A stretch of DNA of 64,000 nucleotides from NCBI RefSeq assembly GCF_000027125.1, contig NC_017626.1; one strand, 5' to 3'. Positions 7,018-9,369 of this stretch are shown here, piece after piece; the stretch's first letter is position 1, and the number at the start of each line of letters is the position of its first letter. The translations under genes were made by a program, and so were the position numbers. Under the pieces are notes generated by a model, which was not told the origin of the DNA, searched no databases, and was given only the letters and a program-made list of their open reading frames with translations. Source of the stretch: Escherichia coli 042 (GTDB taxonomy: Bacteria; Pseudomonadota; Gammaproteobacteria; Enterobacterales; Enterobacteriaceae).

Positions 7018-7497
7018 ATGAAAACCGTTTCTCAGAATACCCCCACAATTTATTCAGCTACAACACCAGAGAATAATCCGCCTCAGTTGGTTGCCAGCCT
7101 CGTCCCTGATGAACAGCGCATCAGCTTCTGGCCGCAGCATTTTGGCCTCATTCCACAGTGGGTGACCCTGGAGCCCCGTGTCTTCGGCTGGATGGACCGT
7201 CTGTGCGAAGACTACTGCGGTGGTATCTGGAATCTGTACACCCTGAACAACGGCGGGGCATTTATGGCACCCGAACCGGATGACGATGATGACGAAACAT
7301 GGGTACTGTTCAGTGCCATGAACGGTAACCGCGCAGAAATGAGCCCGGAAGCCGCCGGTATTGCCGCCTGTCTGATGACGTACAGTCATCATGCCTGTCG
7401 TACGGAGAATTATGCCATGACGGTCCATTATTACCGGTTGCGGGATTACGCCCTGCAGCATCCGGAATGCAGCGCCATTATGCGCATCATCGACTGA
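7018..7497 (+). CDS. Antirestriction protein (YfjX/YafX/KlcA-like), 159 aa
   Basis: AAGGAG RBS; acidic stretch PEPDDDDDETW; sits immediately upstream of the radC-like gene as yfjX/yafX do in CP4-57/CP4-6. Confidence 0.7.
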   Translation: MKTVSQNTPTIYSATTPENNPPQLVASLVPDEQRISFWPQHFGLIPQWVTLEPRVFGWMDRLCEDYCGGIWNLYTLNNGGAFMAPEPDDDDDETWVLFSAMNGNRAEMSPEAAGIAACLMTYSHHACRTENYAMTVHYYRLRDYALQHPECSAIMRIID

Positions 7498-7512
7498 ATG
7501 GAGAGAAGCACA

Positions 7513-7989
7513 ATGCAACAACTTTCCTTTCTGCCCGGAGAGATGACGCCCGGCGAGCGCAGCCTCATTCTGCGGGCTCTGAAAACCCTGGACCGCCATC
7601 TTCATGAACCCGGCGTGGCCTTCACCTCCACCCGTGCAGCACGGGAATGGCTGATTCTGAACATGGCGGGACTGGAGCGTGAAGAATTCCGGGTGCTGTA
7701 TCTGAACAACCAGAATCAGCTGATTGCCGGTGAAACCCTCTTCACCGGCACCATCAACCGCACGGAAGTCCATCCCCGGGAAGTGATTAAACGCGCCCTG
7801 TATCACAATGCCGCTGCTGTGGTGCTGGCACACAATCACCCGTCCGGTGAAGTCACACCCAGCAAGGCAGACCGCCTTATCACGGAACGTCTGGTACAGG
7901 CACTGGGCCTGGTGGATATCCGGGTGCCGGACCATCTGATAATCGGTGGCAGCCAGGTTTTCTCCTTTGCCGAACATGGTCTGCTTTAA
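7513..7989 (+). CDS. yeeS: RadC-like JAB/JAMM-domain protein (YeeS/YfjY/YkfG family); start at ATG 7513 preferred over 7498
   Basis: JAMM motif HNHPSGEVTPSKAD (H-x-H-x7-S-x2-D); GGAGAG at 7501-7506 supports ATG 7513; the ATG at 7498 abuts the preceding stop (TGAATG). Confidence 0.8.
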   Translation: MQQLSFLPGEMTPGERSLILRALKTLDRHLHEPGVAFTSTRAAREWLILNMAGLEREEFRVLYLNNQNQLIAGETLFTGTINRTEVHPREVIKRALYHNAAAVVLAHNHPSGEVTPSKADRLITERLVQALGLVDIRVPDHLIIGGSQVFSFAEHGLL

Positions 7990-8051
7990 CCCGTTACAAC
8001 CACATCACACCTGTTTTCACTTTTATCTTCTGTCTTCAGAGGTATCCCATT

Positions 8052-8273
8052 ATGAAAATTATCACCCGTGGTGAAGCCATGCGTATTCACCAACAACATC
8101 CGACATCCCGTCTTTTTCCGTTCTGTACCGGTAAATACCGCTGGCACGGCAGTGCTGAAGCGTATACCGGTCGTGAAGTGCAGGATATTCCCGGTGTGCT
8201 GGCCGTGTTTGCTGAACGCCGTAAGGACAGTTTTGGTCCGTATGTCCGGCTGATGAGCGTCACCCTGAACTGA
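8052..8273 (+). CDS. yeeT: YeeT-like prophage protein, 73 aa
   Basis: Length and position between the radC-like gene and cbeA; AGAGG RBS. Confidence 0.7.
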   Translation: MKIITRGEAMRIHQQHPTSRLFPFCTGKYRWHGSAEAYTGREVQDIPGVLAVFAERRKDSFGPYVRLMSVTLN

Positions 8274-8346
8274 GTGGGAATTCTGATGAGCAGAATTATC
8301 GCCACTACCGGACCATTCTTAGCCGATTTTCTGTAAGGATTTTATC

Positions 8347-8715
8347 GTGTCAGACACACTCCCCGGGACAACACTTCCCGACGACAATCACGACCGCCCC
8401 TGGTGGGGGCTGCCCTGCACCGTGACGCCCTGTTTCGGGGCACGTCTGGTGCAGGAGGGTAACCGGTTGCATTACCTTGCCGACCGCGCCGGTATCAGAG
8501 GCCTGTTCAGCGATGCAGATGCGTACCACCTGGACCAGGCCTTTCCGCTGCTGATGAAACAACTGGAACTCATGCTCACCAGCGGTGAACTGAATCCCCG
8601 CCATCAGCATACCGTCACGCTGTATGCAAAAGGGCTGACCTGCAAAGCCGATACCCTCAGCAGTTGTGGTTACGTTTATCTGGCTGTTTATCCGACGCCC
8701 GAAATGAAAAATTAA
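8347..8715 (+). CDS. cbeA: Type IV antitoxin CbeA (YeeU), 122 aa, GTG start
   Basis: N-terminus MSDTLPGTTLPDDNHDRPWWGLPCTVTPCFGARLVQEG matches recalled YeeU; immediately upstream of cbtA. Confidence 0.85.
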   Translation: MSDTLPGTTLPDDNHDRPWWGLPCTVTPCFGARLVQEGNRLHYLADRAGIRGLFSDADAYHLDQAFPLLMKQLELMLTSGELNPRHQHTVTLYAKGLTCKADTLSSCGYVYLAVYPTPEMKN

Positions 8716-8803
8716 CTCTCCAGAATAGCCTTCTGCTACGGCCTGGTGTTTTCACCACGCCACTTTTCCATTTTTATATCTGCATATCAGGAAAATCTTC
8801 AGT

Positions 8804-9178
8804 ATGAAAACATTACCTGTATTACCCGGGCAGGCGGCCAGTTCTCGCCCGTCTCCTGTTGAAATCTGGCAGATACTGCTGTCCCGACTGCTGGACCAGC
8901 ACTATGGCCTCACACTGAATGACACACCTTTTGCCGATGAACGTGTGATTGAGCAGCATATTGAGGCAGGCATTTCACTGTGTGATGCGGTGAACTTTCT
9001 CGTGGAAAAATACGCGCTGGTGCGTACCGACCAGCCGGGATTCAGCGCCTGTACCCGCTCTCAGTTAATAAACAGTATTGATATCCTCCGGGCACGCCGG
9101 GCAACCGGCCTGATGACCCGCGACAATTACAGAACGGTAAATAACATTACCCTGGGTAAGTATCCGGAGGCGAAATGA
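8804..9178 (+). CDS. cbtA: Type IV toxin CbtA (YeeV), cytoskeleton (FtsZ/MreB) inhibitor, 124 aa
   Basis: Length and position downstream of cbeA; conserved CP4 toxin arrangement. Confidence 0.85.
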   Translation: MKTLPVLPGQAASSRPSPVEIWQILLSRLLDQHYGLTLNDTPFADERVIEQHIEAGISLCDAVNFLVEKYALVRTDQPGFSACTRSQLINSIDILRARRATGLMTRDNYRTVNNITLGKYPEAK

Positions 9179-9369
9179 TGACACTGGAAGCCGACAGCGT
9201 TAACGTACAGGCGCTGGATATGGGGCACATTGTCGTTGACATTGATGGTGTTAATATCACTGAACTGATTAATAAGGCCGCTGAAAACGGTTATTCACTC
9301 CGCGTGGTGGATGACCGTGACTCTACCGAAACACCGGCAACTTATGCCAGCCCTCACCAGTTGCTGTAA
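9175..9369 (+). CDS. yeeW: YeeW-like prophage protein, 64 aa
   Basis: ATG overlaps the cbtA stop (ATGATGA); position as in CP4-44. Confidence 0.55.
   Translation: MMTLEADSVNVQALDMGHIVVDIDGVNITELINKAAENGYSLRVVDDRDSTETPATYASPHQLL

Follow-up and report, generated by a model that had tools for sequence, protein, structure and literature searches.

The stretch of Escherichia coli 042 DNA analyzed here (64,000 nucleotides, hereafter the window) carries, between positions 7018 and 9369, a set of small plus-strand genes that raise the question of which element they belong to, how far their unit extends and what they might still do. The earlier note had taken them for typical CP4 cargo, with the gene names and the order used below, and our analysis agrees: 7018-9369 is the familiar block of genes at the right-hand side of CP4-44, a cryptic E. 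coli island, and comprises ArdB, the RadC-like YeeS, YeeT, the CbeA/CbtA pair and a truncated YeeW. As this gene block is already well known, it should be regarded as ordinary and not as a discovery.

Identity and extent of the gene block

The ORF list of the window places six ORFs at exactly these coordinates, all on the plus strand. Pfam matched them to Antirestrict, RadC, DUF987, CbeA_antitoxin, CbtA_toxin and DUF5983_N (E 1e-29 to 1e-58), with gathering thresholds exceeded by a wide margin in all six cases. Comparison with K-12 YeeS, YeeT, YeeU, YeeV and YeeW gave 98-100% identity for the five proteins, none of these matches being of low identity, and the CP4-57 and CP4-6 paralogues were 60-81% identical. 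A second toxin-antitoxin system that had been claimed for the window, yefM-yoeB, is indeed found at 19000-19502 as two adjoining minus-strand ORFs that overlap by 4 bp and belong to the expected Pfam families. A chance origin of these ORFs, family matches, K-12 identities and of yefM-yoeB is impossible. The features referred to throughout are the following:

5785..6018, plus strand: DUF905 gene, YkfF-like (Pfam DUF905 E 9.5e-18; 46% identical to K-12 YkfF)
6040..6069, plus strand: terminator-like hairpin from a pattern scan, 13-bp stem followed by TTTTTCATTTAT (RNA fold -22.6 kcal/mol, z -5.7)
6118..6936, plus strand: DUF932 gene, paralogue of K-12 YfjQ/YafZ (Pfam DUF932 E 3.9e-52; 74-75% identical to these)
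7018..7497, plus strand: ardB, ArdB/KlcA-family antirestriction protein, 159 aa, pI ~4.7 (Pfam Antirestrict E 8.3e-37)
7513..7989, plus strand: yeeS, RadC-like JAB/JAMM domain protein, 158 aa, or 163 aa if read from 7498 (Pfam RadC E 1.4e-44)
8052..8273, plus strand: yeeT, DUF987 small protein, 73 aa (Pfam DUF987 E 1.9e-39)
8347..8715, plus strand: cbeA (yeeU), type IV antitoxin, GTG start, 122 aa (Pfam CbeA_antitoxin E 4.3e-53)
8804..9178, plus strand: cbtA (yeeV), toxin inhibiting FtsZ and MreB, 124 aa (Pfam CbtA_toxin E 3.1e-58)
9175..9369, plus strand: yeeW, truncated DUF5983 gene, 64 aa (Pfam DUF5983_N alone, 2e-29)
9403..9495, plus strand: DUF957 remnant from tblastn, C-terminal 30 codons with an internal deletion and no start codon
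9525..9549, plus strand: terminator-like hairpin followed by TTTTCATTTAT (RNA fold -17.6 kcal/mol, z -2.9)
19000..19254, minus strand: yoeB, type II toxin (Pfam YoeB_toxin E 3e-42)
19251..19502, minus strand: yefM, type II antitoxin (Pfam PhdYeFM_antitox E 6e-28)

The conserved unit does not begin at 7018 but reaches upstream to the DUF905 and DUF932 genes. The first of these is conserved, and 5785..6018 is labelled as a DUF905 family protein in a near-identical record. Similar terminator hairpins flank the stretch from DUF932 through the DUF957 remnant; they have a tail motif in common (at 6066 and 9546, with 0 occurrences expected by chance), which is also present at the equivalent sites in two relatives (L014 and L006). 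The DUF932 gene is probably the first gene of the transcription unit and the hairpin at 9525..9549 probably its end, with homology to intact islands stopping at ~9582, where DUF4942 would start.

A single plus-strand transcription unit, running through DUF932, ardB, yeeS, yeeT, cbeA, cbtA and the stumps of yeeW and DUF957, is most likely. This is because all of the genes point the same way and either lie 15-88 bp apart or overlap by 4 bp, because terminator-like sites inside the unit are weak and the strong hairpins at 6040-6069 and 9525-9549 bracket it, and because the K-12 operon is listed as yeeRST-cbeA-cbtA-yeeW and the homologous operon in CP4-57 is lfgABCDE (PMC10846083). A pattern scan of the sequence found no promoter-like site just upstream of DUF932 or ardB, and the start of the unit should therefore be considered putative.

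Other candidate features were rejected. The long antisense ORFs 7054-7977 and 6124-6963 lie in register with sense genes almost devoid of TTA, CTA and TCA codons and were not taken as genes. Rfam revealed no family within the block, the fold z-scores of its intergenic spacers (-0.5 to -1.4) do not support structured RNA, and a small hairpin in the cbeA-cbtA spacer likewise lacks statistical support.

Comparison with the K-12 islands

K-12 CP4-44 (yeeR-yeeS-yeeT-cbeA-cbtA-yeeW) occupies the same locus (flu ... yoeF-tmaR-yeeA-sbmC-dacD) with the same gene order, in flanking DNA that is 98.8-98.9% identical, and ends in an identical yeeW/DUF957 stump. It lacks, however, 3.36 kb that the window retains (4180-7536), comprising the 3' third of yeeR, irmA, DUF905, DUF932, ardB and the first 10 codons of yeeS. 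K-12 CP4-44 thus has no antirestriction gene, a point on which the earlier reading needs correction. A repeat-mediated deletion was considered and rejected, as comparison of the K-12 junction revealed no shared repeat longer than 5 bp.

The CP4-57 operon lfgABCDE (yfjX-yfjY-ypjJ-yfjZ-ypjF) and the CP4-6 operon yafX-ykfG-ykfH-yafW-ykfI each contain these five families, collinear and on a single strand, as paralogues of the window's genes, and both are preceded by DUF932 and GTPase genes. They differ from the window in their antitoxin-toxin spacer (~20 bp vs 88 bp), in the length of the antitoxin (105 aa vs 122 aa) and in having no DUF5983 stump.

The gene products and their predicted activities

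ArdB scored 125.7 bits against Antirestrict (PF03230; cut-off 25) and matched PDB 2WJ9 (E 2.5e-99, 143/159 residues or 90% identical) and KlcA (PDB 2KMG, E 1e-20), with which it has both family and fold in common. Judged by identity, its closest relatives are the ArdB of CFT073 PAI-II (ORF14; the protein of 2WJ9), which diverges over the N-terminal 28 residues and is ~98% identical thereafter, and then K-12 YfjX/YafX (67-69%). ArdB-CFT, YfjX and YafX relieve type I restriction in vivo; they do so indirectly and not by DNA mimicry, as they have a novel non-mimic fold and EcoKI is not inhibited in vitro (PMC2836571). The window ArdB would act likewise, being nearly identical to a protein that does so. 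The acidic patch pointed out earlier, PEPDDDDDETW, is indeed present in the first ORF and conserved in CFT073 ArdB, but as the ArdB family is not a DNA mimic, the patch is uninformative on mechanism and cannot serve as a cue to it. Membership of the DNA mimics (ArdA/Ocr) was rejected, as Pfam returned PF03230 alone and the family fold is of the non-mimic kind.

For yeeS, the ATG at 7513 is favored over that at 7498 because GGAGAG lies 7 nt upstream, and the PGAP start in the near-identical record agrees. YeeS scored 151 bits against RadC PF04002 (cut-off 22) and 150 bits against TIGR00608 (cut-off 134), and matched PDB 2QLC (E 4e-25). The JAMM motif that had been proposed is located at residues 107-120, as HNHPSGEVTPSKAD (H107-N-H-P-S-G-E-V-T-P-S-K-A-D120), and contains the metal-binding pattern H-x-H-x7-S-x2-D used as a membership test for RadC JAB proteins. 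Identity is 98% to K-12 YeeS (over 148 aa), 81% to YkfG and 77% to YfjY/LfgB. The score against the full-length RadC/YicR equivalog NF000642 was below the cut-off (159.8 bits vs 180), with positions 88-211 of 212 matched; as the N-terminal part is unmatched, YeeS is a short, JAB-only form. YfjY, now LfgB, was reported to be a protease that degrades MqsA and casein, with purity caveats acknowledged for the assay (PMC10846083), although RadC domains have alternatively been proposed to act as nucleases or in nucleotide processing. By paralogy with LfgB, YeeS may be a JAMM zinc hydrolase working as a protease.

YeeT is 100% identical to K-12 YeeT and matches PF06174 over its full length (133.8 bits, cut-off 25, positions 1-65 of 65), with pairwise dN/dS of 0.07-0.25. 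Its AF2 model is confident (pLDDT 97) and presents a strand-helix-three-strand layout for which no structural match was found, such that the predicted structure gives no functional lead. The description of its role as undefined still applies, as a 2024 survey lists yeeS, yeeT and yeeW as uncharacterised (PMC11551758). YeeT would be a dispensable, small accessory protein. DUF987 was also considered as an F-plasmid leading-region family and rejected, being found in just 58 of 72,556 plasmids; DUF905 and DUF932 are the leading-region families.

The assignment of CbtA/CbeA as a type IV pair is confirmed by both Pfam families. CbeA, encoded 88 bp upstream of cbtA on the same strand, scored 178.5 bits against PF06154 (cut-off 27), matched PDB 2H28 'yeeU' (E 5e-84) and is 99.2% identical to K-12 CbeA, with G replacing D in the SSCDYVY segment. 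CbtA matched PF06755 over its full length (195 bits, cut-off 25) and is 100% identical to K-12 CbtA, and it thus carries R15, seen in the translation, and F65, which is invariant in the CbtA alignment. In K-12, CbtA stops division and elongation, yielding lemon-shaped cells, with F65 needed for FtsZ binding and R15 for MreB binding (PMC5624674). CbeA neutralises CbtA and is assigned to the type IV antitoxins, acting on the targets and not on the toxin; the K-12 antitoxin bundles filaments and so counteracts the toxin at its target without binding it (summarised in PMC5371832). The earlier description of CbtA as an FtsZ/MreB inhibitor is therefore sound for the K-12 protein, and the window CbtA would block the same two targets, with CbeA, one residue away from its K-12 counterpart, providing rescue. 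The pair has no autoregulation, and K-12 expression of these genes is low (PMC5371832). In the window, the pair would presumably depend on the upstream promoter.

YeeW, also 100% identical to its K-12 counterpart, starts within the cbtA stop (ATGA). It had been listed as a gene of undefined role, and while it is indeed still uncharacterised (PMC11551758), the gene is not intact: full-length DUF5983 relatives have 162 aa with an N (PF25638) and a C (PF19419) domain, of which YeeW has only the former. By sequence, then, YeeW is a truncated remnant, and it would be a non-functional stump. DNA homology to full-length loci breaks at ~9314, and this right junction is common to 3972/5426 complete E. 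coli genomes (~73%). Structure prediction gave no functional lead, as the 12-sequence alignment yielded a pLDDT of 62 (below 50 for the N domain), too poor for a fold search. The downstream DUF957 remnant is 63% identical (tblastn) to residues 36-65 of a 65-aa DUF957 protein and is labelled as an incomplete pseudogene in the near-identical record.

Linkage, origin and present role

Our preferred reading, to which we assign a probability of roughly 85%, is that of a CP4-44 right-arm module that is more complete than K-12's on the left, equally decayed on the right, and organized as one plus-strand unit from a transferable element. The block would descend from the establishment genes of such an element, because at least 5000 plasmids, of which 86% are conjugative, carry DUF932 homologues (~66-68% DNA identity), and in the IncF plasmid that we inspected the homologue precedes traM, within the leading region, because a DUF905 gene adjoins ssb in the IncF leading region, because the ArdB-RadC-DUF987-CbeA-CbtA pentad is also carried by IncF and IncHI plasmids, and because antirestriction and toxin-antitoxin genes are enriched in plasmid leading regions (PMC11541004). 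Like the anti-defence islands of conjugative-plasmid leading regions, the block combines co-oriented antirestriction, toxin-antitoxin and small uncharacterised genes; unlike them, it is chromosomal, and its DUF987 family is rare on plasmids. As the annotation of the near-identical record lists no oriT or relaxase near the block, no ssb or psiB was found there and no integrase was identified in the window, an establishment role would be ancestral and not current. At present, CbeA/CbtA might serve island retention and an occasional stress-linked growth arrest.

To characterize linkage, we considered 69 related Enterobacterales loci from many genera, selected for a CbtA identity of 54% or more and representing one island family. 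Gene order is conserved over these loci. In 68 of them (99%), RadC immediately precedes CbeA-CbtA, whereas ArdB is present in 74%, YeeT (DUF987) in 72%, and DUF932 is variable. RadC-CbeA-CbtA is thus a near-invariant core, from which ArdB and YeeT are dispensable. This leads to an alternative that we consider unlikely, namely that CbeA and CbtA work together with YeeS as a system of three components, in which the JAMM enzyme is obligate and triggers or regulates the type IV pair, for instance through cleavage of CbeA or of a host factor. Besides the linkage, this is suggested by the breakdown of the antitoxin MqsA by the YeeS paralogue LfgB (PMC10846083) and by the still missing activation step of type IV toxins, given a pair without autoregulation (PMC5371832); if true, YeeS would supply the activation or control step of CbtA/CbeA. 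However, as all 69 loci belong to one island family, the linkage may merely reflect shared descent and operon structure, and RadC-like genes without the pair exist on IncL/M plasmids. In CP4-6, moreover, co-expression of yafX-ykfG-ykfH left YkfI/YafW toxicity unchanged (PMC5371832), so functional coupling of the upstream genes to the pair is not supported.

That the block is inert, decaying DNA whose intact ORFs persist for want of time is quite improbable. The right side is indeed decayed, with stumps of yeeW and DUF957 and DUF4942 gone, and in K-12 the loss of 3.36 kb from the left side has no known consequence and expression is low. Nonetheless, the six ORFs are intact in most E. coli, with 3128 genomes containing at least 80% of window 5000-10300, the right junction is kept in the 3972 genomes noted above, and K-12 CbtA and CbeA are active when expressed (PMC5371832, PMC5624674). 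All genes of the block have pairwise dN/dS values of 0.04-0.53, well below 1, although these low values largely reflect the history of the family and not of this copy. An anti-phage defence module, with CbtA/CbeA as an abortive-infection system, is very improbable: phage defence is a frequent toxin-antitoxin activity, the neighboring CP4-57 island holds the defence genes abpAB and rnlAB and AbiE adjoins the block in one related island, but no protein of the block matched the PADLOC defence models, the accompanying genes are antirestriction (anti-defence) and so of opposite polarity, and the cited literature reports no phage phenotype for the block genes.

The preferred reading, that of a CP4-44 right-arm module, concerns genes for which annotations already exist in thousands of E. 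coli genomes; the toxin-antitoxin pair and the antirestriction protein among them have been characterised by experiment elsewhere. E. coli 042 nonetheless shows what K-12 CP4-44 has lost, namely part of yeeR (its 3' third), irmA, DUF905, DUF932 and ardB. What is listed as the 'uncharacterised protein' YeeW is the stump of a gene, fixed in this state in about three quarters of complete E. coli genomes. YeeT is a dispensable insert whose fold, predicted with confidence, is without known relatives. The RadC-like enzyme, as the sole near-invariant neighbor of CbeA/CbtA, offers a cheap lead on the control of type IV toxin-antitoxin systems.

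Block genes and comparison with K-12 CP4-44

The earlier note had placed a six-gene block at 7018-9369, and the ORF list and Pfam returned six plus-strand ORFs at exactly those coordinates. The acidic string of the antirestriction protein was found in the 7018-7497 ORF, and the JAMM motif of the RadC-like protein, HNHPSGEVTPSKAD, occupies residues 107-120 of its 158-aa form. The second toxin-antitoxin system is likewise present (ORFs, Pfam), with yoeB at 19000-19254 and yefM at 19251-19502, both on the minus strand. The block is already known and correctly named, and the details added here are incremental.

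Genes of the block and of the segment preceding it
5251-5706: irmA, flanked by yeeR and the DUF905 gene; Pfam IrmA (interleukin receptor mimic protein A), E 2e-37
5785-6018: DUF905 gene
6118-6936: DUF932 gene
7018-7497, plus strand: ardB, 159 aa; Pfam Antirestrict, E 8e-37
7498 or 7513-7989, plus strand: yeeS, 163 or 158 aa; Pfam RadC JAB, E 1e-44
8052-8273, plus strand: yeeT, 73 aa; Pfam DUF987, E 2e-39
8347-8715, plus strand: cbeA, 122 aa, GTG start; Pfam CbeA_antitoxin, E 4e-53
8804-9178, plus strand: cbtA, 124 aa; Pfam CbtA_toxin, E 3e-58
9175-9369, plus strand: yeeW, 64 aa; Pfam DUF5983_N, E 2e-29

Window positions 1-4179 and 7537-13835 align with CP4-44 of K-12 MG1655 and its right flank at 98.8-98.9% identity, over a K-12 region that spans flu, yeeR through yoeF, tmaR, yeeA, sbmC and dacD. 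Low identity to K-12 YeeS, YeeT, YeeU, YeeV and YeeW was not found, as these five proteins are 98-100% identical (YeeS 98%; CbeA 99.2%, a single change, G for D; YeeT, CbtA and YeeW 100%); YoeF is also 100% identical. Identity to the CP4-57 and CP4-6 paralogues is 60-81%. K-12 CP4-44, however, lacks window 4180-7536 (3357 bp), which holds the 3' third of the 840-aa yeeR, irmA (K-12 CP4-44 has none), the DUF905 and DUF932 genes, ardB and codons 1-10 of yeeS. The gene names and the description of the block as CP4 cargo stand, except that the antirestriction gene is absent from K-12 CP4-44. As a result of this deletion, the 510-aa YeeR of K-12 is a truncation of the 840-aa product and the start of its 148-aa YeeS is an internal Met. 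No common repeat longer than 5 bp was found at the K-12 deletion junction. For yeeS in the window, we prefer ATG 7513 over ATG 7498, as GGAGAG lies 7 nt upstream, PGAP made the same choice in a near-identical database record, and 158 aa is the length of YkfG, the CP4-6 paralogue.

The intact yeeR ORF (840 aa, 2653-5175) gave no Pfam match; the C-terminal half of its product weakly matches the PADLOC candidate defence model PDC-M09B (E 6e-6 and 5e-5). Remnants of yoeD (a transposase fragment, minus strand) and yoeF (an EutP/PduV C-terminal fragment) at 9784-10166 mark the right edge of CP4-44; the island end as annotated in K-12 corresponds to about 9983. Two antisense ORFs, 7054-7977 (minus strand, 307 aa) opposite ardB-yeeS and 6124-6963 (minus strand, 279 aa) opposite DUF932, were rejected as genes: they share codon register with sense genes holding just 0-1 TTA, CTA or TCA codons each and are thus a by-product of codon usage.

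Outside the block, gathering-level Rfam matches at 16998-17072, 19812-19935, 39230-39268, 44614-44684, 49074-49123 and 63546-63584 comprise STnc240, the His operon leader, two JUMPstart elements (one of them at 39230-39268), naRNA4 and algC RNA. GC is low at 31000-39000 (0.30-0.39, about 0.5-0.56 elsewhere), a tract ending shortly before the JUMPstart at 39230-39268 that is probably the O-antigen cluster.

Probable transcription unit and decay of the right-hand end

The block genes all run in one direction; gaps of 15, 62, 73 and 88 bp separate them, except that cbtA and yeeW overlap by 4 bp. Within the block, the scan returned only weak terminator-like sites, the intergenic spacers fold no better than shuffled sequence (z -0.5 to -1.4), and no Rfam family was found. 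Strong terminator-like hairpins follow irmA (5731-5759), DUF905 (6040-6069, z -5.7) and the DUF957 stump (9525-9549, z -2.9), and after each of the three comes TTTT(C/T)ATTTAT. The latter two have a common tail, GCKTTTTCATTTAT (0 chance matches expected); a 14-nt tail, GCKTTTTYATTTAT, is present at two places in the window, where chance predicts 0, and corresponding positions in E. albertii and a plasmid-borne copy of the island have it too. We infer a single unit from DUF932 to the DUF957 stump, a reading in line with the K-12 operon name yeeRST-cbeA-cbtA-yeeW. The pattern scan identified no promoter for it.

Judged from its sequence, YeeW is a gene stump, with an N-terminal Pfam domain as its sole match. 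On plasmid NZ_CP010123, a full-length relative of 162 aa has N and C domains and precedes DUF957 and DUF4942 genes. Compared with that locus and with E. albertii, the window DNA is homologous up to 9314, loses similarity over about 98 bp and aligns again at 9413-9582, with some 466 bp missing. Of DUF957, only the C-terminal 30 residues are encoded, at 9403-9495; homology to intact loci stops where DUF4942 would start, and no DUF4942 or GTPase gene was found in the window. As 3972 of 5426 complete genomes share the exact yeeW junction, the right-side decay is old and widely inherited. An independent 63-aa DUF5983 ORF with only the N domain, like YeeW, lies at about 8320 in the Buttiauxella izardii locus (L031); loss of all but the N domain may have more than one origin. 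The DUF5983 structure model was too poor for use.

ArdB, plasmid links and YeeT

ArdB is identical at 143/159 positions to PDB 2WJ9 (ArdB of CFT073 PAI-II) and matches KlcA (2KMG) at E 1e-20. In vivo, ArdB and KlcA inhibit each of the four type I R-M families, whereas EcoKI is not inhibited in vitro; the fold of the ArdB/KlcA family is novel and does not mimic DNA (PMC2836571). Although the acidic patch of the window protein is genuine (pI about 4.7), it does not indicate an Ocr/ArdA-type mechanism.

DUF932 homologues occur on at least 5000 plasmids, of which 86% are conjugative. On an IncF plasmid, the leading region holds DUF932, upstream of traM, and a DUF905 gene adjoins ssb; the full ArdB-RadC-DUF987-CbeA-CbtA pentad is found on IncF and IncHI plasmids, and IncL/M plasmids carry RadC-like genes without the toxin-antitoxin pair. 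Leading regions are enriched in antirestriction and toxin-antitoxin genes (PMC11541004). Taken together, these links make the module resemble a set of establishment genes from a transferable element. No transfer function turned up in the window, and neither an oriT nor a relaxase is annotated near the block.

The DUF987 family is small, with 178 clusters at E <= 0.001 in a set of 1.84 billion representatives, and it is rare on plasmids. Its distant members have neither RadC nor a toxin-antitoxin pair nearby; one adjoins a DNA cytosine methyltransferase on a Vibrio plasmid and another a dCMP deaminase on a phage-like contig. YeeT was modelled with confidence (pLDDT 97), and the model has no match among solved structures or BFVD. 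For YeeT, we commit only to an accessory protein, dispensable and belonging to the early regions of mobile elements. Three database ORFs of 211-249 aa (P0121, P0126, P0127) carry the YeeT sequence at their C-terminus and may reflect read-through from the upstream gene or a mis-called fusion with it.

The RadC-CbeA-CbtA core among cbtA loci

A CbtA alignment scan with one genome per species yielded 80 loci from many Enterobacterales genera, in 69 of which the sequence upstream of cbtA extends for 4.5 kb or more. Among these 69, same-strand neighbours were RadC and CbeA at 68 each (99%), ArdB at 51 (74%), DUF987 at 50 (72%), DUF932 at 36 (52%) and DUF905 at 28 (41%), shares that should be read with the caveat that all surveyed loci form one island family, such that the RadC-CbeA-CbtA linkage may reflect shared descent. 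Gene order is constant (GTPase, DUF932, DUF905, ArdB, RadC, DUF987, CbeA, CbtA, at times followed by DUF5983, DUF957 and DUF4942). In loci without DUF987 the RadC-to-CbeA gap is just 22-117 bp, and the gene is therefore truly missing. From these shares and gaps, RadC-CbeA-CbtA is the invariant core and YeeT an optional insert. Pairwise dN/dS is 0.04-0.53 for every gene (yeeT 0.07-0.25), and window 5000-10300 has a match in 5423 of 5426 complete E. coli genomes, at a median of 5 places per genome.

Two size classes account for most cbeA-cbtA spacers in the Enterobacterales loci (L013-L092), about 24-34 bp (CP4-6 and CP4-57 type) and about 57-103 bp (CP4-44 type; 88 bp in the window). The window spacer holds a small hairpin, then a T-rich run, without statistical support.

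The window CbtA is identical to the protein in which FtsZ binding requires F65 and MreB binding requires R15, the double mutant being non-toxic (PMC5624674). The three K-12 toxin-antitoxin pairs show no autoregulation and weak expression, and YkfI toxicity is unaltered by the three upstream genes (PMC5371832). YfjY, the CP4-57 paralogue of YeeS, is now LfgB, encoded in the five-gene lfgABCDE operon (yfjX-yfjY-ypjJ-yfjZ-ypjF) and reported to be a protease degrading the antitoxin MqsA, with purity caveats stated by the authors (PMC10846083); others have argued for nucleic-acid processing by RadC-type JAB domains. The genes yeeS, yeeT and yeeW remain listed as uncharacterised (PMC11551758). The near-obligate RadC-CbeA-CbtA linkage is the one lead worth experiment.
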